This document shows, one piece after another, positions 17,355 to 30,893 of a stretch of 35,112 nucleotides of DNA. The position numbers were made by a program, and so were the translations under genes. This DNA is from a virus. Taxonomy: Duplodnaviria; Caudoviricetes. The number at the start of each line of letters is the position of its first letter. The first letter of the stretch is position 1. The stretch lies in IMG/VR virus record IMGVR_UViG_3300044608_000441, positions 1 through 35,112 of that record. One strand, given 5' to 3'. The notes below the pieces were generated by a model. That model was not told where the DNA came from. It saw only the letters and a list, made by a program, of their open reading frames with translations, and did not search any database.

Positions 17355-19223
17355 CTAACTGTATGTTTCAGCCCATTGTTCTGCGAAGGCTTCATTTAAG
17401 TCGATTGAGTGTCTTTGTTGTCTTTGTGCTTTAGTTGCCCAACGATTATTAGCGAACTTAGAAGCGGTTGAAGTTTGTTGCATTAATTCTCTTACCTTGA
17501 TAATAGCAAACCACAAAGCCATTACGGTATCTGTAGGGTTTCTAGTATCTGGCTTCCAAGTAATTAATTGTTGAACTAATGTCTTAAGACCTTCTGAGCC
17601 TTCATTAGAAGGAAGTTCAATAACATTGTTATCTTGAAACCGTGAGTCACGGGTATTACCAAACAGCATAGCCATAGAGGCCACACCGAAAGATGCGTCC
17701 CATTTATTCTTACCAGTAAAGTGTGAGTTGAGTTGGCAACCGTATTGGCCTAGCCAGTTTCTCAAATCATCATCTAAGGCGTAAGCCTTCTGGTGTGCGT
17801 TGATTTCAATTCTTATCTCTTGGGGTTTGTACTTGATAACCCACTCTTCGATAAGGTCTCTGATTCTTTGTGGAGTAGTGTCGGTCATATTGACACAATC
17901 CAAAATATAAATTTTTCCGTCAGTGCGATTGTAAGTAATTACTACCGCTCCTGTGGCTCCTGCCATCGCTGGGTCGAGGCCAATAACTGTATATGCAGAT
18001 TCAATATGCTTCGGATGTCCTGGGACTCCAGGCTTGAGAGGTCCTCGTTTTCGCATTCCATTAACGCTACCTGCGACACAGGTCGGCGAAAATATGGAGT
18101 TCTCAACAACATCTTCTTGCTGATATACCATCGCCCAAACGGACGGGGTAACTTCTGAGCGCCTTGTGAATAAGGCTGGTCCATCCCACTTTGCATATAA
18201 TCCATCTTCGCCTGGCTCGTCAATTTCAATTTCTGGTCTATCGGTTTTTGGCCAAAGCGTTTTCCAATTTTCTGGCTCTTCGTCAAACTCTAAAACTGCA
18301 GGACAAGCAAAGTAGGTAAATGGAGATTTACCACCTGTCCATTGCGAACCGTCCCGTAGCATCTTGTATAAATCAATTGGGGCAACACGGGTTCCTACAA
18401 TGAGTAACTTGCCGTGTCGTCCCAAACGGGTGATGACTTCTTTTTGAAGCCATTCAATTTGCTTCTCCCACTCGTGGGCATTTGCATTCATCACCACATC
18501 GTCTAAAACGATTAAGTCGGCACGAGCACCGTAAATCTGAGAACCGATACCTAGGGCCTGCACCGTAGGGTCCTTCTCGCCAGAGTCACGTCCTGTGCCT
18601 AGATAAATCATATCTGCTGACCATTGGGTAGCGTCAGACTTGTATCCACCATTAGGACCAAATGCGGTATGCAACTTGGTAAAGTTTGGGTGGGTCAACC
18701 TGTCCTTGATTTGTCCCAAAAATTTTCGAGCCATACTCTGAGTTTTAGAAACTATAATAACCCGTGAGTTAGGATTGGTTACGATTTTCCAAGTTACATA
18801 ATTTGAGGTTATGGTTGTGGACTTGGCGTGCTCAGGTGGCACATTGATTAGGATGCGCTTGTCTGAGGCTTTCTCGTAAACCATCGAGGGGTGAATCCAA
18901 GATGGGTCCTTACCCTCTATCAACTCAATCCAATTTTTCTGGTGAGGGAATATCTGGGTATCTAAGAACTGACTACAGAAATCTTCGTAGGTGATGTCCT
19001 TTAGGTTGGCTAGGTCGGCCTTAAAGCCTTTACCTGCCAGACGGGCTTTGTCAGATGCTTCCTTAAACTCAGGGTCCTGCATCGACCATTGGCGGAAGGT
19101 GACATCGTTTCGTCCTACCGCTGACATAGCGTTGGTAATTGTGGAGCCTTGTTCCAATAGGGCTAGAACCTTCTTCTGAGCCTCGCCCTTTGGGATATTT
19201 TGTACCCCTGGTTTTCTGCCCAT
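17355..19223 (-). CDS. terL: Terminase large subunit with N-terminal HTH-like extension
   Basis: FPHQ adenine-binding motif, Walker A VPPEHAKST, Walker B LIVLDD, coupling motif VGTR, nuclease IGLDPA and DTVMA. Confidence 0.92.
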   Translation of the reverse strand: MGRKPGVQNIPKGEAQKKVLALLEQGSTITNAMSAVGRNDVTFRQWSMQDPEFKEASDKARLAGKGFKADLANLKDITYEDFCSQFLDTQIFPHQKNWIELIEGKDPSWIHPSMVYEKASDKRILINVPPEHAKSTTITSNYVTWKIVTNPNSRVIIVSKTQSMARKFLGQIKDRLTHPNFTKLHTAFGPNGGYKSDATQWSADMIYLGTGRDSGEKDPTVQALGIGSQIYGARADLIVLDDVVMNANAHEWEKQIEWLQKEVITRLGRHGKLLIVGTRVAPIDLYKMLRDGSQWTGGKSPFTYFACPAVLEFDEEPENWKTLWPKTDRPEIEIDEPGEDGLYAKWDGPALFTRRSEVTPSVWAMVYQQEDVVENSIFSPTCVAGSVNGMRKRGPLKPGVPGHPKHIESAYTVIGLDPAMAGATGAVVITYNRTDGKIYILDCVNMTDTTPQRIRDLIEEWVIKYKPQEIRIEINAHQKAYALDDDLRNWLGQYGCQLNSHFTGKNKWDASFGVASMAMLFGNTRDSRFQDNNVIELPSNEGSEGLKTLVQQLITWKPDTRNPTDTVMALWFAIIKVRELMQQTSTASKFANNRWATKAQRQQRHSIDLNEAFAEQWAETYS

Positions 19224-19289
19224 TTGGTTGCCCTCTGTGTCCCTTTTAAATCGGTATAATAACGGTCCCTAAAAACGGTAGACCTCTGC

Positions 19290-19520
19290 TATATATTATA
19301 TTATTATTATATATATTAGGAGTTGCCGTAGAGCAAACGGAGGCAACTCCGTTAAGATAATATATATTATCTTTACATATATAGATAACCTGTTTTTTTC
19401 TTAAAACCGAACAGATAATCCTAATAATTTTTTATAATGTCCGAATTATACATATATTAGGGCGAATATAACAGAAAAATTTAGGGTAAGTATATATATA
19501 TTATAGTAAGCAAATTAAAT
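19290..19520. other. AT-rich island with GC inverted repeat upstream of late operon (candidate origin/pac/promoter region)
   Basis: TATA-rich tracts flank the inverted repeat GGAGTTGCC-N14-GGCAACTCC (19319-19350). Confidence 0.5.
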
Positions 19521-19848
19521 AACCCTAGGGTCAAATGGCAAACCTAACGGTTTGGAAAAAGTCTAACCCTTTAGTTGAGGTTTAGGGTTATCTTTTTTGT
19601 CTTAAGACTTAATAAAAGGATTTTCTAAGGGCTTAAAAATAAATTCCTTGGATTGATTTAAGGCTGGACTATCCCCCCTTCCAATTCGGCGGGGTTATTA
19701 ATTGTCGACAAATTGACATTATCTCTCAGATAATTCTCAGGTAGAATTCACCTGCAATTCACCTACACAATTACACAATTGGTCAATTGTAGGATATGCT
19801 GAGGTTATTAAGAGGGAAATTCCTTCTTAAGACGGGAGAAGAAAGAAA

Positions 19849-20541
19849 ATGAAAACCGCAACAAAAACCGCACCAAAAGCAAAAACCGCTGGAGATATTT
19901 TCCAAGCACCAAAAACCGAAAACCTTTCGGTGATTGTAAAAGCACTTGAAGAGGCTCACGCCTTAATCCAAAAAGAAACCGACGCACCCCGTGCCGTGAT
20001 TTCCATTGGACGCTCTTCAAAAGTTCACGGCTCCTTTACACCTTGGACACCTTGGGGAACTAATGAAAAAGACGGCGAAAAGTTTCACGAAATCTTTATC
20101 TCTGCCTCATCTTTTGATAGGGGAGCCGAGGCGATTTTGGGAACTCTTTTACACGAAACCGCTCACTCTTTAGATTTGAAAGCGGGAAGAAATGGCGTCA
20201 GCCAAGAGGGCTATCACAACAAAACTTTCAAGAATACTGCTGAAAGTCTTGGCCTAGAAATTGAGCAGGCCAAGCGTATCGGTTGGAGCACCACAAAAGT
20301 GCCTGCTTCTTGTATCAAAAGATGGGAGGAGGCTTTCGGAATTATTGCCGAGGCTTTAAAGTTAGTTGCGGTCAATGATAGCGAAAAGCCAAAAGGCCGA
20401 AATAAGAATAATAAAGTTGCGGTCTGCCAATGCGGTGAGAAAATCCGCTTAAGTCTTAAGACATACAATCTCACCCGCCCAGTTTGCCAAAACTGTGAGA
20501 GTGAATTCGTCCTAGAAACCGAAGAAGGAGGCGACGAATAG
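19849..20541 (+). CDS. SprT-like zinc metalloprotease with C-terminal Zn ribbon
   Basis: TLLHETAH (HExxH), YHNKTFK, C-terminal CQCG...CQNC. Confidence 0.8.
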   Translation: MKTATKTAPKAKTAGDIFQAPKTENLSVIVKALEEAHALIQKETDAPRAVISIGRSSKVHGSFTPWTPWGTNEKDGEKFHEIFISASSFDRGAEAILGTLLHETAHSLDLKAGRNGVSQEGYHNKTFKNTAESLGLEIEQAKRIGWSTTKVPASCIKRWEEAFGIIAEALKLVAVNDSEKPKGRNKNNKVAVCQCGEKIRLSLKTYNLTRPVCQNCESEFVLETEEGGDE

Positions 20542-20563
20542 CCCAGCAGGGTAATTGACAACA

Positions 20564-20650
20564 GCCCGCCAAGGTGGAAAAATCTGAGGGTGCAAATCCC
20601 CAGACGGGCACAAGGTTAGGGAGAAATTCTCCCCGACTTAAGACAGGAGA
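20564..20650 (+). ncRNA. Intergenic structured element copy 1 (T-loop three-way junction + hairpin + motif + RBS)
   Basis: GCCCG/CGGGC closing stem, CCA/TGG arm, TCTG-A-GGG[TGCAAAT]CCC-CAGA arm. Then GGGAGA-AAT-TCTCCC, GACTTAAGAC, AGGAGA. Confidence 0.55.
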
Positions 20651-20656
20651 AAAGAA

Positions 20657-20926
20657 ATGGCAACAAAATATAAGCACAGCGTCGAGATAGTTCACGAAGG
20701 GCACAGTGGAGTGATGGAGTTTACTTTCACAGCCGACGAAAACACCGACCCTTCAAAAATCTTCGACCAATTTATCACTGAGTTAAGTATCATTGTGCAC
20801 GACGTCGAAGAGTTAGAGTTTGAAGATTGCGACGGGTGCAGTGATGAATTTGACGTGGAGGAATTAATAGAAGACGAAAACGCAGGGCTTAAGTTCTGCA
20901 AATTTTGCAGAGAGGAAAACAAATAA
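20657..20926 (+). CDS. Acidic hypothetical protein with CxxC...CxxC (89 aa)
   Basis: AGGAGA RBS; CDGC and CKFC. Confidence 0.8.
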   Translation: MATKYKHSVEIVHEGHSGVMEFTFTADENTDPSKIFDQFITELSIIVHDVEELEFEDCDGCSDEFDVEELIEDENAGLKFCKFCREENK

Positions 20927-20942
20927 CGTCTTAAGACATAAA

Positions 20943-21036
20943 GCCCCTCACCCTTAATCAGAGGGCGCAGGTTCACGACCTAGCGGGGCACGGGTTGGAG
21001 GGAAATTCCTTCCGACTTAAGACAGAACGACAGGAG
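20943..21036 (+). ncRNA. Intergenic structured element copy 2
   Basis: GCCCC/GGGGC closing stem, CCCT/AGGG arm, GC-AGG[TTCACGA]CCT-A-GC arm. Then GGAGGGA-AAT-TCCTTCC, GACTTAAGAC, GACAGGAGA. Confidence 0.55.
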
Positions 21037-21041
21037 AAAAA

Positions 21042-21287
21042 ATGCTGGTAAGAATAGCAACGACGAACGACGCAAGCGGAAACCCTAGACGGGGCTGGTT
21101 AAGACTAACCGCAGGCGGTCAGGTTATAGGCTGGACAGAAGAGGGCTACCTTGGACGTGGTGCCATTGATGGATACGACGACGGCGAGAGCCCTACAATT
21201 TACGTTAAGCCCTCAGAGTATAAGCGTTTCAAAAAATGGGGCGAAACAATTCAAGAGAACTTTACAAAGGAGGAGTTAAATGTCTAA
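21042..21287 (+). CDS. Hypothetical early protein (81 aa)
   Basis: AGGAGA RBS; NDASGNPRRGW motif. Confidence 0.8.
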   Translation: MLVRIATTNDASGNPRRGWLRLTAGGQVIGWTEEGYLGRGAIDGYDDGESPTIYVKPSEYKRFKKWGETIQENFTKEELNV

Positions 21288-21423
21288 CGACTTAAGACAT
21301 AAAAGCAAGTGTCAAGAATGCAACAAAAAGAAAAATCTTTTTGATGTGGTAAAAAATGGGCAAGAAATAAAAGCCTGCTCCGATTGCATAACGGAACAAT
21401 TGTTAACAGGCTGGAGCAGATAA
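21280..21423 (+). CDS. Zn-ribbon microprotein (47 aa)
   Basis: Own translation MSNDLRHKSKCQECNKKKNLFDVVKNGQEIKACSDCITEQLLTGWSR; AGGAGG RBS. Confidence 0.75.
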   Translation: MSNDLRHKSKCQECNKKKNLFDVVKNGQEIKACSDCITEQLLTGWSR

Positions 21424-21424
21424 A

Positions 21425-21589
21425 ATGAACAGAGGGCACAGGTATTATCAGATTAGAAAGGTGGTGCGCCTCGTATTCTGGGGCGCATTACTGGCTGGCG
21501 TCTATTATATAGCGACCCATTTAAATTGGGTAGGAGATGGATACTGCTGGGGAACTATGGATAAATGCTACTTAGGAGATGATAAATGA
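21425..21589 (+). CDS. Small membrane protein (54 aa)
   Basis: Own translation MNRGHRYYQIRKVVRLVFWGALLAGVYYIATHLNWVGDGYCWGTMDKCYLGDDK; one hydrophobic helix. Confidence 0.7.
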   Translation: MNRGHRYYQIRKVVRLVFWGALLAGVYYIATHLNWVGDGYCWGTMDKCYLGDDK

Positions 21590-21684
21590 ATGACGTCTTA
21601 AGACATAAAGATAAAGAAATAGAATTAGTTGTTTGTGGTGATTGTCTTTATCCAATTAATATTTGTAAGGGTTGTGCGTCTTAA
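21586..21684 (+). CDS. Cys-rich microprotein (32 aa)
   Basis: Own translation MNDVLRHKDKEIELVVCGDCLYPINICKGCAS; AGGAG RBS and ATGA overlap. Confidence 0.6.
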   Translation: MNDVLRHKDKEIELVVCGDCLYPINICKGCAS

Positions 21685-21715
21685 GACGTGAGGCAAACAA
21701 CACAAACGAGTTGGC

Positions 21716-21743
21716 TTGACACAGTTCACCATTGTGTTATCGT
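21716..21743 (+). promoter_or_regulatory. Housekeeping-sigma-type promoter
   Basis: TTGACA (21716-21721), 16 nt spacer, TG-n-TATCGT extended -10, in an intergenic gap before 21771. Confidence 0.6.
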
Positions 21744-21770
21744 TCTACTAAGCAATAGACAGGAGAAAAA

Positions 21771-22148
21771 ATGGATACAGGCTCGACGCTAACAGTAAGC
21801 AAATCGTTTACAGTTGGCGAATTATGGGAAGCGGTATGGGGTTGCGACGGTGCTGGTATGTATTACTGGTGCAGGAAACTACGCAAACCAAACTACCAAG
21901 GCATAGACCTATGGAAAAGAGTGGACGGCAAGATTACGCCAAACCCTCAACCCGTAAGAGTTTATGACAGCATAGAAGAGAAGTCTTATGTGGTTGAGAT
22001 TGACGACTTAAGACGTGGTTATGAATTGGCAATCAAGGCAGGGCAAACCCACTGCGGTGGTTATCCACTGGATACAGAGGATTATGACGCTTGCTTTGGG
22101 GATTTCATTGTGCAATATGCAATTTTTGGCAAGTTAATTTACGGTTAA
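21771..22148 (+). CDS. Hypothetical early protein (125 aa)
   Basis: GACAGGAGA RBS; C-terminal DACFGDFIVQYAIFGKLIYG. Confidence 0.8.
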   Translation: MDTGSTLTVSKSFTVGELWEAVWGCDGAGMYYWCRKLRKPNYQGIDLWKRVDGKITPNPQPVRVYDSIEEKSYVVEIDDLRRGYELAIKAGQTHCGGYPLDTEDYDACFGDFIVQYAIFGKLIYG

Positions 22149-22174
22149 TTACTACTTAAGACAGGAGAAATATA

Positions 22175-22534
22175 ATGGGAGCAAGAACAAACTTTCACTT
22201 CAAGCAAGGGGATAATTACTTAACTCTTTATTCCCACTGGGGTGGAGATAGTAAAATGCAAGACTTAGCCTATGCAATTTCTATGGCTGAGCCAAGATGG
22301 GACGACATTGGATACGCTACTAGAATTATGGTTAGTGTATTAATCGGCGATAGTTGGACAAGTGAAACTGGCTATGGACTACACGCTGACGCAATCGGTG
22401 GTGAAGAAAGTTATGAACACACCATCATTGACCTAGATAATAAAGTTGTGATAGTTGATGGGCAACCTAAACCTTTCAAGGACTTTATCTCTTATCACTC
22501 AAATACATTTCACGTTGGTGAGATGGTTAACTAA
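22175..22534 (+). CDS. Hypothetical early protein (119 aa)
   Basis: CTTAAGACAGGAGA upstream; MGARTNF...LYSHWGG. Confidence 0.8.
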   Translation: MGARTNFHFKQGDNYLTLYSHWGGDSKMQDLAYAISMAEPRWDDIGYATRIMVSVLIGDSWTSETGYGLHADAIGGEESYEHTIIDLDNKVVIVDGQPKPFKDFISYHSNTFHVGEMVN

Positions 22535-22558
22535 CGACTTAAGACAGGAGAAAACAAA

Positions 22559-22840
22559 ATGAATGCAACGAAAGATATAAAAATAACTGGAGTAAGACAC
22601 GAAGAAACTGCGTGGAAAAGATATATTTATTTTAAATATGAAAACACAGAATACAGTGTTTTATTATTTTGGGACGAGTTTAATGGTTATGAACTATACT
22701 GGAAAGATGAAGATAGTGCTATTATAAATTCTCGCAAAACCCCTGAGTGGGCGGTTGAATGGAACGAAGATGGGCACGATTTTATGACACTAGAGCACTA
22801 CTTAGATGAGTTAACCTACAAAGAGCAGGAGACAAAGTAA
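22559..22840 (+). CDS. Hypothetical acidic/aromatic early protein (93 aa)
   Basis: GACTTAAGACAGGAGA upstream. Confidence 0.8.
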   Translation: MNATKDIKITGVRHEETAWKRYIYFKYENTEYSVLLFWDEFNGYELYWKDEDSAIINSRKTPEWAVEWNEDGHDFMTLEHYLDELTYKEQETK

Positions 22841-23062
22841 ATGGGAGCAAGTCCTAAATGGAAAGTGTATGACGCAAGTAATCAATACGTAGCAAGTGTA
22901 AGAGATACAGAGGGCGCAAGTCTTTTGATGAGCCTATACGGAACTGGTGCAACAATTCGACTAGACCATAGAAGAATTGTGTGGACTGAAGGGGCAGATG
23001 GAAACGCCTCAGAAAGTTATGACCAAACAGCAATCAAAATCCAAGAACGATTGATGTCTTAA
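22841..23062 (+). CDS. Hypothetical protein (73 aa)
   Basis: AGGAG RBS; its stop codon is the TAA of a GTCTTAAGAC motif. Confidence 0.75.
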   Translation: MGASPKWKVYDASNQYVASVRDTEGASLLMSLYGTGATIRLDHRRIVWTEGADGNASESYDQTAIKIQERLMS

Positions 23063-23076
23063 GACAGGAGAATGAA

Positions 23077-23175
23077 ATGGATATGGAGCAAGAGATTGAG
23101 GGCTTGGATTTATTTCAAAGCCTAGTAGTATTAGCAGAACGGTTAGTCGAACTGACAGGAGAAAAAAATGACTAA
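23077..23175 (+). CDS. Microprotein (32 aa)
   Basis: Own translation MDMEQEIEGLDLFQSLVVLAERLVELTGEKND, after GTCTTAAGACAGGAGA. Confidence 0.6.
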   Translation: MDMEQEIEGLDLFQSLVVLAERLVELTGEKND

Positions 23176-23311
23176 AGATATATGCCAATTCTGTGGTTGG
23201 GAAATAGTAAATCCTGACTGGTATAACCAATACAACAGCAAACCATTATGCGACGATTGTAATATGGATATGATGTTGGAAAGACAAAAAGAATTGGAGA
23301 ACAGCAAGTGA
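23168..23311 (+). CDS. Zn-ribbon microprotein (47 aa)
   Basis: Own translation MTKDICQFCGWEIVNPDWYNQYNSKPLCDDCNMDMMLERQKELENSK; GACAGGAGA RBS. Confidence 0.75.
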   Translation: MTKDICQFCGWEIVNPDWYNQYNSKPLCDDCNMDMMLERQKELENSK

Positions 23312-23496
23312 GCGATTATAAAGACTATGAGGTAAGGGTCAGTTATGATGGCGGTATTTATGTCTCTGCTTTAAATCAAGAAGAGGCAATAGAAATAGCC
23401 AAGAATATTATGCTAGAGGAAACTAATCCTGATATGGCTAAGTATCTAACCTATGAGGTAGAGCAAACCATACTAAAGCAGGTGCAAAATGCCTGA
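23308..23496 (+). CDS. Hypothetical protein (62 aa)
   Basis: GTGA overlap; VSALNQEEAIEIA motif. Confidence 0.75.
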   Translation: MSDYKDYEVRVSYDGGIYVSALNQEEAIEIAKNIMLEETNPDMAKYLTYEVEQTILKQVQNA

Positions 23497-23653
23497 ACCA
23501 CGCTACTTAATGGGAGATAATTACGCCTTAAGTGGAATAGAGTTAGACATAGTTAAATGTAAAGAGTGCAAGTGTGAGTATGATTATAGCGAGTATCATT
23601 CCTACACCTGCTCAGACTGCGAAGATAAAATGATTGCGAGGTTAAAGAAGTGA
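23489..23653 (+). CDS. Zn-ribbon microprotein (54 aa)
   Basis: Own translation MPEPRYLMGDNYALSGIELDIVKCKECKCEYDYSEYHSYTCSDCEDKMIARLKK. Confidence 0.7.
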   Translation: MPEPRYLMGDNYALSGIELDIVKCKECKCEYDYSEYHSYTCSDCEDKMIARLKK

Positions 23654-23877
23654 AACAATTCTCTGTGATTTACAATGTCAAAGGCACTAAGATTGTTGAC
23701 ATATATCTACCCGACGGTATCGAATTGCCTGAAAATTGGCAGAGCCTTACCGTTGAAGAGCAAGATGAATTCCTGTATACTAACCAATCTCATTCTGTCT
23801 TAAGAACAGAAGACCTAGACTATGGCAAAGTCTTTGAGATATGGGAGAATAAAGATGTTTTAAGGTTGGTTAAATGA
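23650..23877 (+). CDS. Hypothetical protein (75 aa)
   Basis: Coupled overlaps at both ends. Confidence 0.75.
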   Translation: MKQFSVIYNVKGTKIVDIYLPDGIELPENWQSLTVEEQDEFLYTNQSHSVLRTEDLDYGKVFEIWENKDVLRLVK

Positions 23878-24116
23878 GCCTAGACATAGGCTTGTTGCCA
23901 CCTGACTGGACTAAGAAAGCCTTGTGTGCTGAGGTTGACCCAGTAATTTTCTTTCCTGAAGCGGGTGAGAAAACTGCGGACGCAAAAAGAATATGCAGGG
24001 CTTGTGATGTTAAGACCCAATGCCTTGAATATTCCATAACCAACAACGAAAGGTTTGGCATATGGGGCGGACTAACGGAGTTCGACAGACGAAGGCTCAG
24101 AAGAGAAGCAAGTTAA
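23874..24116 (+). CDS. whiB: WhiB-family Fe-S transcription factor
   Basis: W...ALC...DP..FFP...AKRICRAC.V...CLEY...FGIWGGLT..R: four Cys plus the GIWGG turn. Confidence 0.95.
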   Translation: MSLDIGLLPPDWTKKALCAEVDPVIFFPEAGEKTADAKRICRACDVKTQCLEYSITNNERFGIWGGLTEFDRRRLRREAS

Positions 24117-24520
24117 TAAGAAAACGGGTGGTGGCTACGGCCTTGTTAGTCATCACCCTAATCTTTTTCCCTATACAAAAACTAACAGCACCACACAAAT
24201 CCCCCACTCCTGAGCCTACAAAGGCTACAATGGAGCAGAAGAAGGCTAACAAAGCCTTGGCTAAAAAGATTGCTTGGGTTGGATATGGGTGGAAAGATAA
24301 AGAGTGGGCTTGTCTTGATAAGATATTTTATAAGGAGGCAAAATATGACCACCTTGCAAAGAACCAATTGGGTTCAAGTGCATATGGAATTGGTCAACGT
24401 CTTAAGGAGAAAAGTAAAGACCCTATGACACAGTTGCTACACACTTATAAATATATCCAGCATAGGTATAAAACTCCCTGCTCTGCTTGGCGGTTTCATA
24501 TTAAGAATAATTATTACTGA
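24062..24520 (+). CDS. Membrane-anchored lytic transglycosylase (lysozyme-like fold); true start probably further downstream
   Basis: Hydrophobic VVATALLVITLIFFPI segment; EWACLDKIFYKEAKYD (catalytic Glu position), SSAYGIGQRL, YIQHRYKTPCSAW. Confidence 0.75.
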   Translation: MGRTNGVRQTKAQKRSKLIRKRVVATALLVITLIFFPIQKLTAPHKSPTPEPTKATMEQKKANKALAKKIAWVGYGWKDKEWACLDKIFYKEAKYDHLAKNQLGSSAYGIGQRLKEKSKDPMTQLLHTYKYIQHRYKTPCSAWRFHIKNNYY

Positions 24521-24696
24521 TGTTTGACTTAAGAGGCGAACCAGCATTTGTATGTATCTGTGGGTCAAAGATGTGGAACCTAAAGGTAATGTGGGACACC
24601 GAGACTAGGCAGGTGGGAATGTATTTGTTAGACCAAGTATGTGATGAATGCGGGGCGATAGCCACCGCTCCGACAGAGATAGATGGGTGTGAGTAA
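24520..24696 (+). CDS. Zn-binding hypothetical protein (58 aa)
   Basis: Own translation MFDLRGEPAFVCICGSKMWNLKVMWDTETRQVGMYLLDQVCDECGAIATAPTEIDGCE; TGATG/TAATG overlaps. Confidence 0.75.
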   Translation: MFDLRGEPAFVCICGSKMWNLKVMWDTETRQVGMYLLDQVCDECGAIATAPTEIDGCE

Positions 24697-24872
24697 TGCC
24701 AACTTATGAATATAGATGTAATCAATGTCAAGCACTTTATGTCTTAAGTAGAAGTGTAGATGAACGAAGCCACGAAGTTAAATGTGTATGTGGTGATGTA
24801 GCAGAAAGAGTTTTCAACTCTGTCTCTGTTCAATTCAAGGGCACAGGTTTCTATAAGACGGATAACAAATGA
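24696..24872 (+). CDS. FmdB-family zinc ribbon protein (58 aa)
   Basis: Own translation MPTYEYRCNQC...CVCG...RVF...VQFKGTGFYKTDNK; MPxYEYxC and FKGxGFYxTD signatures. Confidence 0.85.
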   Translation: MPTYEYRCNQCQALYVLSRSVDERSHEVKCVCGDVAERVFNSVSVQFKGTGFYKTDNK

Positions 24873-24877
24873 AAGAC

Positions 24878-25564
24878 CTACTCAGTTTTGCTTTCAGTTT
24901 TAGCAGGTTGTTCTTCGCCGTCACTATGATTTTCATTATGCTTTTCTAGGTCAACATCATTGTAAGGTTTAAATCCACCAAGCCTACGAATTAATCTATT
25001 AAGTGCACGACGTTGTCTCATACGTGCAGTATCTTCTGAGCCTAATTCAAGAGTATCGGCAATCAACTTATATTCCAATGACTCTGCGTGTCTTAAGAAT
25101 AAAATCTTTCTATCTTCCTTAGATAGTTTCCAATAAGCATAATCAATCTCTATCATCATAGCCATAAGATTGCCACCTTCAGCAGGAGCAGAGGTTCCTT
25201 TGACACCACCTAAATCTAATTTATGTCCAACATTTATCTCACCCCTTAAGACAGAAGGCAACAGAGCCTCGACCAAACCAGCCTCATAGTAGTATAAATC
25301 ACTGGTTTCGTAGCCACTTGTGTTGGCTTTCCACTCCTGACAATAGTCTAAAGCGTGGTTGCGAAGAGAGCGATAGATTAAATTCTTTGCATCTTTGTCG
25401 CCAATCTTTTCCCACTCTTCTACCTTGTTGGGGTGTTCATAGAACCATTGGTATAAAGATTGTTTAATATCTTTTAGTTCAACCATCTGAAATTTCTTGT
25501 GATACTCAGAAGCAACAGCGTCTATCACATAATTCCATTCTTTAATTTTATTCCAATCCATCAC
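24878..25564 (-). CDS. Phage sigma-70/ECF-like RNA polymerase sigma factor
   Basis: Region-2-like ELKDIKQSLYQW...LIYRSLRNHALDY. Region-4 HTH LSKEDRKILFLRH..LEYKLIADTL...TARMRQRRALNRL. Confidence 0.8.
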   Translation of the reverse strand: MMDWNKIKEWNYVIDAVASEYHKKFQMVELKDIKQSLYQWFYEHPNKVEEWEKIGDKDAKNLIYRSLRNHALDYCQEWKANTSGYETSDLYYYEAGLVEALLPSVLRGEINVGHKLDLGGVKGTSAPAEGGNLMAMMIEIDYAYWKLSKEDRKILFLRHAESLEYKLIADTLELGSEDTARMRQRRALNRLIRRLGGFKPYNDVDLEKHNENHSDGEEQPAKTESKTE

Positions 25565-25950
25565 GATAATTTTATGCCTAACTCTAGTGGTAAAAAAGTA
25601 ACTAACTTTGTCGTCTTTGATTTATCTTGAAACTCAGTGGTAGTAGGTAACCATTTCTCAACCCATTCTAAATCTTTAACTACTGTCTTAAGCGGAAAAG
25701 ACCAGACACCAAGAGGCGTTGAGTTTATATACCAAGGTGTATAACCAAGAACATCTGCGGTCAAGACTAGAAAATCAAACTTCTTTCTTTCCAGTAGCAG
25801 AGTATCATAGTGAGTATTCCTAGACTTAAGTTCAATAAACATTTTATAATGACCGCTTGTGCAATCAAAACCATCATACTCTTTACTAGATTTTTCTAAG
25901 TCAGAGTAATGACCAGCCTTCAGCCAATCAAATAATTCCTGTTCTTTCAT
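25561..25950 (-). CDS. PD-(D/E)xK nuclease-like protein
   Basis: E...FDC...FIELKSR motif. Confidence 0.65.
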   Translation of the reverse strand: MKEQELFDWLKAGHYSDLEKSSKEYDGFDCTSGHYKMFIELKSRNTHYDTLLLERKKFDFLVLTADVLGYTPWYINSTPLGVWSFPLKTVVKDLEWVEKWLPTTTEFQDKSKTTKLVTFLPLELGIKLS

Positions 25951-26333
25951 TCTTTGCTATCCCATTGGCGTCTTAAGACTAAGAGAGCAATGATGGAGTA
26001 GTTAGCCATATCTTTGAACGAGTCTTCAAGGGACTCGTGTTGTGGGTTTCTACTGTTGTCAACAAGGTTATTAATCCTTGCAAGTTTATCGTGCATACGT
26101 ACTCGCAATCCATTGATAGGTCCACCAGGTGACTCGCTGATATTCTTCGGGCCGTAATCAAGGTGCTTGCTGAGGAGCAGTTCTTCGAGTTCATTAAAGG
26201 TATCCTCTACATCTTTCTTGAATTGTTTGTTAAGAGCAGGGGAATCTTTAGTGTTAACAACAAGGTGTTTTGGTAAATCTCCTTCGAGTAAATTTGGAAA
26301 CCTTGTTTTTCCAAGTGGGTTATAATCTGCCAT
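25947..26333 (-). CDS. Nucleotide-modification-associated domain 1 (Nmad1/DUF1599-like) protein
   Basis: LLSKHLDYG...RMHDKLARINNL...ESLEDSFKDMANYSIIAL. Confidence 0.75.
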   Translation of the reverse strand: MADYNPLGKTRFPNLLEGDLPKHLVVNTKDSPALNKQFKKDVEDTFNELEELLLSKHLDYGPKNISESPGGPINGLRVRMHDKLARINNLVDNSRNPQHESLEDSFKDMANYSIIALLVLRRQWDSKE

Positions 26334-26339
26334 ATCTCT

Positions 26340-26711
26340 TCACTCTCCGCTTTCATTGGTAGGTTTTTCCTCTTCTAATAATGTCTTAAGACTATCATCA
26401 AAATCTTTTAATGCTGACTTAACCACCATTTCTTCTATCAATTCTTCGATTGGTTCATAGCCATTCTCTGAAGCAAACAAAGTTACATAGGTTGACTGGG
26501 TAATTAACTTGACTTGTTCAGGACTATTGGCGTTGTTATAAATAAATCTAAGCATCGAACCAAGCATCAATCTATATCCGCTAGGTAGTACTAGGTATGG
26601 GTCAAACTCTTCGTCGTCCTCTAGCAAGTGGTCAACCAATTCAAAGGAACTTTCAAAGACCTGACCACATTCCTTACAAGTATTATGAGGTGGCTGGTCT
26701 TCTAGGTTCAT
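26340..26711 (-). CDS. Hypothetical protein with N-terminal C2H2-like Zn finger
   Basis: CKECGQVF....L..H. Confidence 0.7.
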   Translation of the reverse strand: MNLEDQPPHNTCKECGQVFESSFELVDHLLEDDEEFDPYLVLPSGYRLMLGSMLRFIYNNANSPEQVKLITQSTYVTLFASENGYEPIEELIEEMVVKSALKDFDDSLKTLLEEEKPTNESGE

Positions 26712-27328
26712 TTATTATTTATCTTATTGTGAAAATAACTGGCACCTTCTTGTACAAACATTGAGTTAACGTCGTGCCCATCAGGTAATTGAACAATAGT
26801 AACTGGTAATTCACGAGCAAGACTACGAGCAAACTCAGTTCCTGGTTGGTCTCCGTCTGCAAAAACAAATACTCTTTCAAAATCTGCTAACAATCTTGTG
26901 TAATGTTTCTTCCAACTATTAGCACCAGGAACACCAATGCAGGGTATGCCTATACACATAGACATAGTGATGGTGTCTAGTTCTCCTTCACATACTCCTA
27001 TAAAGTTTGTTGCTTTTTCAATATCAAGTACGTTGTACATTCTAGTTTCAGCACCAGTTAAACCCATATACTTAGGTTCAATAGCAGGATGAAGAGCCCG
27101 AAAACGCAAATCGACAACGCCAGTCTTGGTAATATACGGTATGGATAGTCTTCCTTTGTATGCTTCGTGTCCAACTTCAGGTTCCTCTACTACGCCTAAT
27201 TGCGCCAGCCGTGCTATTTCCACTGGAATTCCCCTGTTTTTTAGGTAGTCTTCCGCCTGATAAATGTTTGCCCCGTAACTTTCCGTCGCCTTCCCCAGTA
27301 ATTCTTTCTGCAATATGCTTTGCTTCAC
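26708..27328 (-). CDS. DNA primase, TOPRIM catalytic part
   Basis: YLKNRGI, RLSIPY, PKY, VCEGELD, FADGDQPG, DVNS. Confidence 0.9.
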   Translation of the reverse strand: MKQSILQKELLGKATESYGANIYQAEDYLKNRGIPVEIARLAQLGVVEEPEVGHEAYKGRLSIPYITKTGVVDLRFRALHPAIEPKYMGLTGAETRMYNVLDIEKATNFIGVCEGELDTITMSMCIGIPCIGVPGANSWKKHYTRLLADFERVFVFADGDQPGTEFARSLARELPVTIVQLPDGHDVNSMFVQEGASYFHNKINNK

Positions 27329-27557
27329 GTATGTTTACCCCTTCTTGCTTACTAATGATTTGCAAACTGTTACCCTGCATTCCGCAGGCGAAACAGATGA
27401 ATATATTATTGTTGAGATTAGCACTTCCCGACTGGTGAGTGTCGGAGTGGAATGGGCACTTGAGATTAACTTGCCCGTAAGTTTGTCGTATGTGTGCTCC
27501 GTAGTGTGTAAGTACTTCTCTGATACTTGGTAGGTCGTTATCATTTTTTATCACCAT
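27177..27557 (-). CDS. DNA primase, CHC2 zinc-binding part
   Basis: CPFHSDTHQS...FICFACGMQGN. Probable start ATG 27557. Overlaps the TOPRIM ORF by 152 nt. Confidence 0.85.
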   Translation of the reverse strand: MVIKNDNDLPSIREVLTHYGAHIRQTYGQVNLKCPFHSDTHQSGSANLNNNIFICFACGMQGNSLQIISKQEGVNIREAKHIAERITGEGDGKLRGKHLSGGRLPKKQGNSSGNSTAGAIRRSRGT

Positions 27558-27888
27558 ACCCTGCCTCTCTAAGCAGATTAACTGCATCTTCAAGTCTTAA
27601 GACTACAACCCAATCTTTAATTTTCTGTTCCCCCTGTCCGTTAAGTCTTAGGCAAACTAACCCAAGAATTCCATTCTTTGCACGTTCCTTTAATTGTGCA
27701 ATAGCACTAGATGGATTAAACCCAGTTCGTGCTTTTACTTCCCAATCAACACCAATACAACCAGTTATATCAGAGCCACTACGTCCTGCCCCCGTGCTTT
27801 CGGCATACGGAAATCCATTCTCCGCTAAGTACATAGCCAAAACTTTTTGACTACGATAACCTCTATGCTTACGGGATTGTGATGGCAC
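27541..27888 (-). CDS. Holliday junction resolvase-like PD-(D/E)xK protein
   Basis: SRKHRGYRSQ..LA.YL...G...GSDI....WEVKAR. Confidence 0.7.
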   Translation of the reverse strand: MPSQSRKHRGYRSQKVLAMYLAENGFPYAESTGAGRSGSDITGCIGVDWEVKARTGFNPSSAIAQLKERAKNGILGLVCLRLNGQGEQKIKDWVVVLRLEDAVNLLREAGYGDKK

Positions 27889-28083: not shown

Positions 28084-28563
28084 CTACTCCTTGAACTCAG
28101 TGATTGGCACTCGCCAGCCATTAATATAGGAATCATACCATTCGTCCTTCATATACTGGGTAGGCGCAACGTATCCATATACCTCAACTTTTGAGTAGTA
28201 ATCTGTATCTAATACCTTCGCCCCAAAAATCAATTTGTCTAAATCCTTTTCCCAAAAAGGAATAGATGTTTGTGTCCGCACTGACCTTACCTCAAACCTA
28301 TCTCCAACATCGGGCAAGGATTGACGTCTAGTATGTAGGCCATTGGGGTACCAAGGGACATTCCAAGATGCGTTGTATTGCTTTGCTACTGCCCATTCAC
28401 AAACATTAGCCCGCACATTAGATAACAATTCGTGTTCCAGTTTTCCATCTGCTTTGCCTTGGGCATAGTTAGGTTTGTCAATCGAGCCAAACTTTGTAAG
28501 CCAACGCTCAGTAGCCAACATAGTGCACACACGTACTTCTTCCTGACTTAAGTCAACAATCAT
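28084..28563 (-). CDS. Hypothetical protein, possible degenerate PD-(D/E)xK fold (159 aa)
   Basis: CEWAVAK...PDVG..FEVRS; TAATG overlap with the helicase gene. Confidence 0.65.
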   Translation of the reverse strand: MIVDLSQEEVRVCTMLATERWLTKFGSIDKPNYAQGKADGKLEHELLSNVRANVCEWAVAKQYNASWNVPWYPNGLHTRRQSLPDVGDRFEVRSVRTQTSIPFWEKDLDKLIFGAKVLDTDYYSKVEVYGYVAPTQYMKDEWYDSYINGWRVPITEFKE

Positions 28564-29345: not shown

Positions 29346-29365
29346 TAATCTCTCCTATCTAGTAA

Positions 29366-29416
29366 TGGTAAGGAGACTCTAAACCGTCTCCCCATAAATT
29401 GAGAATCCCCTTACCA
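29366..29416 (-). promoter_or_regulatory. Long RNA stem-loop upstream of helicase RBS
   Basis: UGGUAAGGGGAUUCU...AGAGUCUCCUUACCA, 15 bp with two G-U pairs on the minus strand. Confidence 0.6.
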
Positions 29417-29438
29417 ATATTTTAAAGTTCGGCTTGAA

Positions 29439-29816
29439 TTAGCCGTTTACTGGGGTGCACTGGTCCGCTCCCTGTGGTTGTGGGCAGACCCACATCTTGT
29501 ACGGTTTTCCGTTTTTCTTGCTGATACCACTCAAGAATTTCCGACTTCCGTGTACGCAAGTAGGCGACGCTTCCGATGTCGGGGCGATTGATGAGGTAAC
29601 TGCGGGCGTAATGCCTACTGTTGAACCAGTGGTCCCCAAAGGGGCTGCAGTGTAAGCACCTGCCAATAACTTTCCAGTTGCTGCAATCTGTGTAGCATAA
29701 TCGCTAACACCTTCAAGCAGTACTGATAGTTCGTCAGATGTATTAGCACGAACATTAATTAAATCTCCATTAGGAGACTTGTAGGAAACCTGTAGTTTCC
29801 AATCTTCGATTGCCAT
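29439..29816 (-). CDS. Hypothetical replication-region protein with C-terminal Cys/His Zn motif (125 aa)
   Basis: Start ATG 29816 (TAATG overlap); CVHG...GKPYKMWVCP...QC. Confidence 0.75.
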   Translation of the reverse strand: MAIEDWKLQVSYKSPNGDLINVRANTSDELSVLLEGVSDYATQIAATGKLLAGAYTAAPLGTTGSTVGITPAVTSSIAPTSEASPTCVHGSRKFLSGISKKNGKPYKMWVCPQPQGADQCTPVNG

Positions 29817-30412
29817 TATTTGCCTTTCGTAAATTGGCAGTGTTCTGTGAGTCCACAGAAACTGCACGATTGTAGGTTTGGTAAGAATATACCTGCCTTC
29901 CTAGCCTTATCGAATCCATCGACAAAGTATTCCAGCATATCTTTTGTATATCTACTAAGGTCAATCATCTCTCCTGTCCCCGACTCACGAGACATCCAGT
30001 AGTTACCTAGATTGACTTCAACACCAAGCATCATCTCTACACCAACTTTATAAAAGCCAAGTTGTAAATCAGATATTGGTTTACGTGAGGATGTTTTCAA
30101 GTCGACAATCACAAGTTGTCCGTTAACTTCAAATATCCTATCAATAAACATCTTCACTGGCACGTCAGCAATGATGGGATTTAACTCCAACTCGATAGCA
30201 CGGATACCCTGTGGGGTGGTCCATATCTTCCAGTCTTTATTATTTTTGCGCCAAGAGATGTAGTTGTCTACCCACTTGGAACCCTGTGTATTCCACCAAA
30301 CAGCATCTTCCTTGTTTGGGTTAGCAATAGTTGAACGCCCAGCAACACGAGCAGTACTTAAATCAATATCCTTGGTTTCAGTTTCCCAAGCCTTAACCCA
30401 TAACTCATTCAT
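29816..30412 (-). CDS. Cas4/RecB-like PD-(D/E)xK exonuclease, C-terminal part
   Basis: IELEL...FIDRI...IVDLKT...QLGFY...CSFC...C. Confidence 0.85.
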   Translation of the reverse strand: MNELWVKAWETETKDIDLSTARVAGRSTIANPNKEDAVWWNTQGSKWVDNYISWRKNNKDWKIWTTPQGIRAIELELNPIIADVPVKMFIDRIFEVNGQLVIVDLKTSSRKPISDLQLGFYKVGVEMMLGVEVNLGNYWMSRESGTGEMIDLSRYTKDMLEYFVDGFDKARKAGIFLPNLQSCSFCGLTEHCQFTKGK

Positions 30413-30593
30413 TTTCTAGGTCGTATAATTCTGTTGCTAAGTGAAATGCTCGTCCACCAGCAGACCAAATGCTAGGTTCTTCAGGTACTTGTAATAATCT
30501 TCCTAGGTAATACTGATAACCACAAGTTAAGTAAGTTGTAAATGCTGAGTAAGATACGTGAGCAGGTAATTCATAATCATTAAGTTTAATCAT
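30405..30593 (-). CDS. Cas4/RecB-like exonuclease, N-terminal part
   Basis: HVSYSAFTTYLTCGYQYYL...GRAFHLATE is the canonical N-terminus of this family. Confidence 0.8.
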   Translation of the reverse strand: MIKLNDYELPAHVSYSAFTTYLTCGYQYYLGRLLQVPEEPSIWSAGGRAFHLATELYDLENE

Positions 30594-30714
30594 CAAGACC
30601 TAATTTATCGTACAGATAATCTACTTCTTCTTTTAACTCTTTAATGTTTTGACTAAGAAGATATATTGAATCAGATAATTCTTCTATAAGTTCATTTACT
30701 TTTTTATTAAACAT
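30586..30714 (-). CDS. Coiled-coil microprotein (42 aa), first gene of replication operon
   Basis: Own translation MFNKKVNELIEELSDSIYLLSQNIKELKEEVDYLYDKLGLDD; CTAAGACAGGAG upstream. Confidence 0.7.
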   Translation of the reverse strand: MFNKKVNELIEELSDSIYLLSQNIKELKEEVDYLYDKLGLDD

Positions 30715-30788: not shown

Positions 30789-30893
30789 AATATTATTATA
30801 TATTAGGTAATATTATATATTATAATTATATATTATATAAGGGGCTCCGCCCCTATATTATATTAATTATATTATATTAATAAGATAATTATA
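30789..30893. other. AT-rich island with central GC hairpin
   Basis: Nearly pure A/T flanking GGGGC-TCC-GCCCC (30841-30853). Confidence 0.55.

Follow-up and report, generated by a model that had tools for sequence, protein, structure and literature searches.

A confined array of palindromic sites in the early arm of a freshwater phage, with an SprT-like protease as its likely reader

The site array and the first gene of the early arm

The window analysed here, 35,112 bases long, is the whole of IMG/VR record IMGVR_UViG_3300044608_000441 (G000, positions 1-35112), a Caudoviricetes phage whose early arm carries an array of palindromic sites and, as its first gene, an SprT-like zinc metalloprotease that likely reads them. 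As judged from complete relatives of 38-40 kb, the window holds about 88% of a genome of about 40 kb, and about 4-5 kb lie outside it. PHROGs and Pfam identify a terminase, portal, capsid, SU10-type adaptor, WhiB, sigma-like protein, primase, DnaB, RusA and exonuclease among its proteins. The rightward arm of small genes begins at 19849, back to back with the terminase gene, see Table 1.

The array had been proposed in a first-pass annotation made from the letters alone, and a recount gave identical figures. The word CTTAAGAC occurs on one or both strands at 23 places in the window, of which 10 are GTCTTAAGAC and 5 are GACTTAAGAC; 22 lie in 19599-27603, and the remaining one, at 17581, is in the terminase gene. 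The earlier estimate of one or two sites by chance agrees with 200 second-order Markov simulations of the window, which gave a mean of 1.8 sites (maximum 6) and a mean of 0.065 perfect 10-mers (maximum 1). The chance of finding 22 of 23 sites within 8005 of 35112 bases is 1.3e-13. Twelve of the 22 arm sites are inside genes, many others are at gene junctions, and the array includes positions at ribosome-binding sites and in genes on both strands. A codon-preserving shuffle, proposed earlier as a check, shows enrichment and not a codon artefact: the coding sequences of the arm hold 12 sites against 0.66 in 1000 synonymous-codon shuffles (maximum 4), while the other annotated genes of the window hold 1 against 0.50. 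The in-gene copies are evidently under selection.

The regional confinement is also seen outside the window. In 13 near-complete genomes with the SprT-like gene, site density peaks at 3.3 per kb at 1-2 kb past the start of that gene, declines through the leftward replication genes and is at most about 0.3 per kb beyond 11 kb; the late genes hold few sites, and there is no uniform spread. Since the density fades in these relatives, the confinement is not due to the 4-5 kb missing from the window.

The palindromic core of the motif was described correctly at first, but not its extent, as the site is 18 bp long and more tolerant than stated. The symmetrised profile reads TT-n-Y-GWCTTAAGWC-R-n-AA, with GWCTTAAGWC as the core, and finds three weaker sites at 23525, 24526 and 28545. 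When all in-gene CTTAAG are taken, their flanks unselected, both motif halves are enriched in genes of either strand. Because this holds for both halves on either strand, the sites point to a two-fold symmetric protein on duplex DNA rather than to an RNA signal. The earlier suggestion of binding sites for a dimeric protein is thus strengthened by the symmetric profile on either strand, the selected in-gene copies and, in relatives, the overlap of sites with the first promoter (see below).

Table 1. Features of the window that bear on the site array.
Feature	Position	Strand	Evidence or remark
22-site array, core GWCTTAAGWC	19599..27603	.	10-bp core starts: 19599, 19824, 20453, 20635, 20928, 21014, 21289, 21595, 21678, 22005, 22153, 22536, 23056, 23797, 24399, 24741, 25090, 25243, 25685, 25970, 26383, 27594
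First site of the arm	19595..19612	.	about 375 bases from terminase start; position shared by many SprT+ relatives
Site directly 5' of the SprT ribosome-binding site	19820..19837	.	sequence; promoter overlap in relatives
SprT-like zinc metalloprotease, 230 amino acids, first gene of the early arm, likely site reader	19849..20541	+	Pfam PF10263 E 5e-4 (under the curated cut-off), phrog_6361, fold match, co-variation
HExxH active site, H102-E103-T-A-H106	20152..20166	+	invariant in the alignment; HE.AH in 90/90 rows
C-terminal tail, GRNKN + CxC...R-L-S...CxxC zinc ribbon, predicted DNA-reading part	20395..20508	+	R, N, four C, R and S invariant in 58 tails
Sigma-70-like promoter candidate TTGACA-17-AAAAAT	20555..20583	+	consensus match only; regional total no higher than in shuffles; site 20635 in its leader
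Sigma-70-like promoter candidate	21716..21743	+	sites 21595 and 21678 upstream
Outlying site in the terminase gene (GLKTL)	17581..17590	.	kept in SprT- relatives as well
Variant site GACTTAAGTC	28545..28554	.	outside the range of the first-pass annotation; profile score 16.7
Stretch without GTAC, GANTC, GCNGC, CCNGG, GGNCC	19265..25079	.	elsewhere in the window 11 per kb

In the SprT alignment H102, E103, H106 and H123 are invariant, so the zincin HExxH and a third ligand are present, and the HExxH is intact in every homologue examined (90/90). A variable linker separates the protease domain from the GRNKN and zinc ribbon of the tail. The AlphaFold2 model has a mean pLDDT (predicted local distance difference test) of 84.7, and its best fold match is SPRTN 6mdx (Z 9.4, root-mean-square deviation 3.4, 103 aligned), covering the protease domain only, followed by minigluzincins and Wss1 (Z 7.4-7.7). 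Foldseek agrees weakly with an SPRTN-type fold (E 0.02). For the tail, all Atlas leads score below 0.9 (PF17283 reaches 0.75, on 15% of members), and among 30 tail-bearing proteins none is fused to a known DNA-binding domain.

Array, gene and tail among relatives

Relatives were gathered by sigma, SprT, primase, the word itself and SprT alignments, giving 143 terminase-to-sigma arms, or 67 once copies were removed. An SprT homologue is present in 33 of these (SprT+); the other 34 (SprT-) have not even a fragment or remnant. All 33 SprT+ arms hold 9-29 profile matches and all 34 SprT- arms 0-7, a contrast to be read with the fact that the profile was derived from 31 of the 33 SprT+ arms. Since some loci had been found by the word, the arms were also split by search route. 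Among the 38 found via sigma or primase alone, the 5 with SprT hold 14-18 exact sites and the 33 without it at most 5. Among the 20 found via SprT alone, 18 hold 9-18 sites, and two hold 0 and 2, with variant arrays.

These variant arrays (L414, L418) use words such as GACATAAGAC, GTCGTAAGAC and GACTTACGAC and follow TTAA avoidance. A tie to the protein tail was ruled out for them, as L419 has a tail near that of L418 yet canonical sites. The clearest case is G056, which has no TTAA in 27 kb and retains the array as GACATAAGAC, GTCGTAAGAC and GTCTTAGGAC. Because G056 retains it, the function of the array would be independent of the AflII core, and the earlier idea of restriction, modification or decoy sites is not supported: the exact hexamer is not required, and the flanks are conserved beyond CTTAAG. 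In the arm loci of G056 (L482, L483) AGCT and CCGG are tolerated, and this phage evidently faces a different host restriction set. A TTAA methyltransferase has been reported in Chloroflexi rather than in lake Actinobacteria (PMC6329791).

Open reading frames (ORFs) were clustered in 42 larger records, two of which lack the arm and are excluded from the count. The SprT family is found in 23/23 records against 0/17, and the next-best family, setting aside a shadow frame over the SprT gene, in 21 against 7. As the records were classed by SprT itself, the informative point is that no second gene family with the same pattern was found, either in the larger records or in the 33 against 34 arms. The first-pass annotation had proposed a search in related phages for the gene that co-varies with the array; the SprT-like protease is the only family that does. 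It had settled on no partner and did not list 19849-20541, while the candidates it did name (WhiB, sigma, 26340-26711, 25561-25950 and zinc microproteins) are present also in relatives without the array.

In 23/33 arms the SprT gene comes before all other ORFs, and in 32/33 it is one of the first four. Its state changes 8 times on the DnaB and primase trees (shuffled mean 12.8), and the starred branches force at least 4 of these changes for DnaB and at least 2 for primase (quick tree). Three records with a terminase identity of only 44% likewise pair gene and array. In ten genes common to both classes, the SprT+ genomes hold 144 sites against 7.9 expected, about one per gene, and the SprT- genomes 6 against 1.8; as the genomes are related and recombine, these counts are not independent events. 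The codons that carry the sites differ by lineage, with 9 columns in the transglycosylase and 5 in sigma. No substitute palindrome was found in the 14 SprT- arms checked. A family of small early proteins of about 60 amino acids (L410:736) occurs in 18/34 SprT- arms and 1/33 SprT+ arms; it is a possible alternative lead gene.

The placement of the sites is regular. The median inter-site gap is 313 bases, and spacing is more even than random in 31/31 arms (p <=0.05 in 22). A TTGAC-type first promoter was located in 11/33 SprT+ and 19/34 SprT- arms, and it is overlapped by a site in 11/11 of the former (scores 9.0-14.5) against 0/19 of the latter (best 2.4). In the window, the site at 19820..19837 is likely an autoregulatory operator. 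Three leader inverted repeats (GAGGGAAATTCCTTC, GGGAGAAATTCTCCC; 19812-19826, 20619-20633 and 20998-21012), with G-T and compensatory changes, each stand directly 5' of a site and a ribosome-binding word.

Distant homologues were collected from the tail profile, and two alignments of them brought new loci. Loci of at least 5 kb were counted, with an SprT less than 50% identical to that of the window and one locus per tail; unreadable tails were left out. The N-tail class is defined as (R/G/K)-(N/D)-(K/R/H)-N before CxC (n=24), and the other readable tails number 50; both classes were defined after seeing the data. At least three profile matches are present in 23/24 N-tail loci (172 against 3.2 expected) and in 0/50 of the others. 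These N-tail homologues are 28-46% identical, and the shared word and tail span phages of 39-70% G+C, including L649, L665 and L674, whose G+C is 59-68% and whose head genes are of the siphovirus type (a tape measure is present in two). GTTTAAAC has at most one copy in any locus of this set.

Where the tail differs, the word differs as well. One starred clade of ten contains seven N-tail members with TTAA-centred sites, L637 with an RRT tail and GACGTACGTC, L677 with a TAQ tail and GATGTACATC, and L627 with an RRN tail and one intermediate site; most sites of this clade lie shortly before the protease gene. In L622, L629 and a Brachybacterium plasmid the tail is of the SSNNG type and the word is CACGTACGTG, while phiAsp2 and five uncultured phages combine phiAsp2-type tails with TGACACTT...GTCA. 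Where inspected, the words of alternative tails are on the protease gene's own promoter. Among nine distant plasmid and phage loci, a clear repeated palindrome is absent in L494, L497 and L499. This pattern is what one would expect of a reader whose recognition is dictated by its tail, and not of a single host factor.

Proposed function and its alternatives

We suggest that the SprT-like protein is likely the reader of the sites. That it also represses, acting on its own promoter and on the early and middle genes, is probable, if less secure. In what we consider the best reading, the sites would be operators plus stoperator-like roadblocks of an autoregulated repressor. The protein would bind the palindromes through its zinc-ribbon tail, probably as a dimer. 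The arm would enter the cell first and be transcribed from an unrepressed promoter, with the protease gene foremost, as suggested by the gene order, the purge of restriction words from 19265..25079 and the record of the cultured relative FlowerPower, which ends at the terminase / early-gene junction. The first-entering DNA of the first-pass annotation thus gains indirect support from the purge, and entry of the early arm first, this stretch included, is likely. The accumulating protein would then occupy the operator on its own promoter, in keeping with the overlap seen in relatives, and the sites, about one per 300 bases and roughly one per gene, would act as stoperator-like roadblocks to elongation. 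In this way early and replication genes would be shut down at a set time and co-infecting kin silenced. Candidate substrates of the protease are the protein itself or host proteins at the sites.

Several observations weigh against this reading, besides the origin of the profile and of the tail classes given above. The tail alone, compared with known folds, gives nothing above Z 2.9 and matches no known DNA-binding domain, and SPRTN reads DNA structure, not sequence (PMC9240642). On the tree of the protease part, the N-tail proteins are largely one clade, with 4 changes, 2 of them forced; L627, with an RRN tail, has only one intermediate site, and other repressors or back-to-back promoters may account for the TGAC-N8-GTCA words. 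The promoter test rests on 11 of 33 SprT+ arms, and the window is outside these 11, its sites being in leaders or upstream of candidate promoters. Among CTTAAG sites of the arms, 138/536 share their right half with the family ribosome-binding word GACAGGAG. Sites also occur without the gene: in the terminase gene of 10/15 SprT- genomes (2.3 expected), before dnaB in 5/17, at 12 places in the complete SprT- genome G004 (none in its arm), and as 7 profile matches in the SprT- arm L034. These may be relics of arm exchange or by-products. Finally, the 55 window proteins (Pfam, PHROGs) and a further 48 ORFs taken from two complete SprT+ genomes (at least 70 amino acids, not shared with the window, Pfam only) yielded no integrase or partition gene, so a lysogeny role is without support; the phage appears lytic.

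The same reader could have another job. Spaced about 300 bases apart, the sites might serve as docking points from which an active protease cuts host proteins that load on the first-entering DNA (silencers, restriction or crosslinked enzymes), with autoregulation secondary. The intact HExxH in 90/90 homologues, the DNA-protein crosslink proteases SPRTN and Wss1 as best fold matches, the even spacing in 31/31 arms with its median gap of 313 bases and the drop in density with distance from the SprT gene all fit such docking. However, one site per small gene is enough to give even spacing, and distant phages have few sites, placed on promoters. Moreover, restriction words are purged from just the stretch where sites are densest, which suggests unprotected DNA, and the purge is also present in the SprT- genomes G002 and G030. 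We regard docking as rather unlikely. A host or core phage repressor that binds the sites, with SprT as its anti-repressor protease in the manner of ImmA / IrrE, seems improbable, since no second phage gene family co-varies with the array and the same word goes with the same tail across 39-70% G+C and virion types, and other words with other tails; it draws on IrrE/PprI among the weak fold matches (Z 5.3), on the sites that persist in SprT- genomes, and on the possibility that a very small or fast-evolving repressor escaped BLAST clustering.

The two remaining alternatives dispense with a reader of this kind. Restriction, methylation or decoy sites with an AflII core, or crossover points for gene-cassette swaps, would account for the CTTAAG core and the many sites at gene junctions, in a family under strong restriction pressure (AGCT, CATG, CCGG and GATC are absent from the window). 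But the array survives the loss of TTAA, 12/22 arm sites are inside genes, and neither the promoter overlap nor the link with one protein tail is accounted for, which makes this very improbable. Even less credible is a by-product of the ribosome-binding word GACAGGAG, as a translation enhancer, and of the conserved peptides LKT and VLR. Although 138/536 arm sites abut that word, and the dnaB and terminase sites are independent of SprT, the other 398 are away from it, the peptide effect is excluded by the codon shuffles, and in SprT- arms GACAGGAG is frequent yet lacks the left half. The by-product explanation is largely refuted for the array but may hold for the dnaB site.

The system proposed here works like two known regulons and is a member of neither, given its palindromic site and likely zincin reader. 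Cluster A mycobacteriophages (TipsytheTRex, L5) have dispersed sites, 26 in TipsytheTRex, thought to block promoter initiation and in-gene elongation (PMC9283540). The likeness lies in two dozen dispersed sites (23 here, 12 of them in arm genes, with promoter overlap in relatives) and in one phage protein as reader, here a predicted one, with a specificity that varies among relatives (PMC9283540). However, the Cluster A site is an asymmetric 13-mer bound by a monomeric helix-turn-helix (HTH) + Stoperator protein in a temperate phage (PMC9283540), while here the palindromic site is symmetric and 18 bp long, the first early gene encodes the likely reader, which combines a zincin protease with a zinc ribbon, and the search for an integrase was negative. 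No HTH + Stoperator-domain repressor was found in the 55 window proteins (Pfam, PHROGs) or the 48 further ORFs (Pfam). In the Reg576 regulon of plasmid p576, as in the scheme proposed here, an autoregulated repressor lets the entering DNA express its first genes for a while and then shuts several promoters (PMC6294495), and in relatives of the window phage a site lies on the first promoter. Its repressor is a ribbon-helix-helix protein acting at four promoters, and the abstract mentions no intragenic array and no protease (PMC6294495); no ribbon-helix-helix family matched the window proteins (Pfam, PHROGs) or the 48 further ORFs, although small proteins of this type are often missed.

ImmA / IrrE cut a separate XRE repressor, and LexA / CI combine an HTH with a serine peptidase. 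Like the system suggested here, they couple a protease to a palindromic-operator regulon, but neither architecture was found in the window phage. SPRTN and Wss1 (PDB 6mdx, 5xbn) resemble the proposed reader in their HExxH zincin fold and in having, behind it, basic residues and a part that binds zinc and contacts DNA, and their DNA-dependent self-cleavage is a precedent (PMC9240642). Unlike the role proposed for the window protein, they are activated by DNA structure (ends, junctions), and the part of that source available to us reports no sequence-specific binding or repression (PMC9240642). The start-associated and extended start-associated sequences (SAS / ESAS) of Cluster K mycobacteriophages are also inverted repeats, on promoters of non-structural genes, with a consensus that varies by subcluster (PMC3203893, PMC11373665). 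They are, however, paired 17-bp repeats and intergenic only (PMC3203893, PMC11373665), while here the palindromes are single and 398/536 arm CTTAAG sites are away from the ribosome-binding word. The SprT-like family could be the missing reader of the ESAS repeats; the link to Cluster K is a lead only. In the Cluster K phage Adephagia, gene 75 (L561:3344-3805), annotated as SprT-like, lies behind an ESAS promoter. No mycobacteriophage is among the 11 phage records that match the window SprT protein.

Phages and plasmids commonly carry SprT-like genes, whose annotation, in the parts of the sources available to us, goes no further than protease or crosslink-repair enzyme (PMC12363180, PMC7824862). 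It can be speculated, tentatively and against our own leaning, that their products form an unrecognised family of sequence-specific DNA-binding proteases, each recognising the palindrome set by a short stretch of residues ahead of its zinc ribbon (RNKN: GTCTTAAGAC; RRT: GACGTACGTC; TAQ: GATGTACATC; SSNNG: CACGTACGTG). One polypeptide would then be both repressor and switch, a metalloprotease counterpart of LexA / CI that keeps the whole early and middle genome silent in a carrier state and, on a DNA signal, cleaves itself or proteins bound at its sites. In the literature we found no account of the palindrome in a phage, nor of an SprT-like sequence-specific binder, although subscription papers and supplements (including that of PMC10202952) may hold one. 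If SprT-like proteins do read DNA sequence, a regulatory role would be added to a widespread family, and a gene-control circuit would become known in phages that infect the most abundant freshwater bacteria. The tail-to-word table would then offer a compact recognition code, open to direct testing, on a protease that carries an address.

The phage, its host and other features of the window

The sigma-like protein of the window is about 61% identical to the proteins of OX376640 and OX376641 and about 29% to those of Streptomyces phage FlowerPower and its kin. OX376640 and OX376641 are the phages E7 and F5, isolated on Candidatus Planktophila (PMC10202952). Because these sigma kin were isolated on that host, a Nanopelagicales host is likely for the window phage, which belongs to a freshwater (lake) family infecting Ca. 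Planktophila. A contig profile search with DnaB found two phage contigs, in unrelated metagenome-assembled genomes.

The purge of the five words GTAC, GANTC, GCNGC, CCNGG and GGNCC from the early arm is also seen in G001 and in the SprT- genomes G002 and G030, and is weaker in others. AGCT, CATG, CCGG, GATC and CGCG have zero copies in the window, and the first four are avoided by most relatives too. In G009 (L121, L122) the early-arm proteins are mostly 78-98% identical to those of the window, while terminase, portal and capsid are 44-49% identical; G009 is evidently a whole-arm recombinant.

Two intergenic stretches rich in TATATATTAT are present, at 19280-19510 (the terminase-arm junction) and 30790-30890 (before the replication operon), and the former likely lies near the genome ends. 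A conserved stem-loop with a GGGGAAG-type loop precedes dnaB in the window (29350-29430) and in relatives. In many relatives, SprT+ or SprT-, it is followed by ACTTAAGACAGGAG; the window has the stem but not the word. The PD-(D/E)XK exonuclease is encoded in two overlapping ORFs, 30405-30596 and 29816-30412, each of which matches a different part of the same families.

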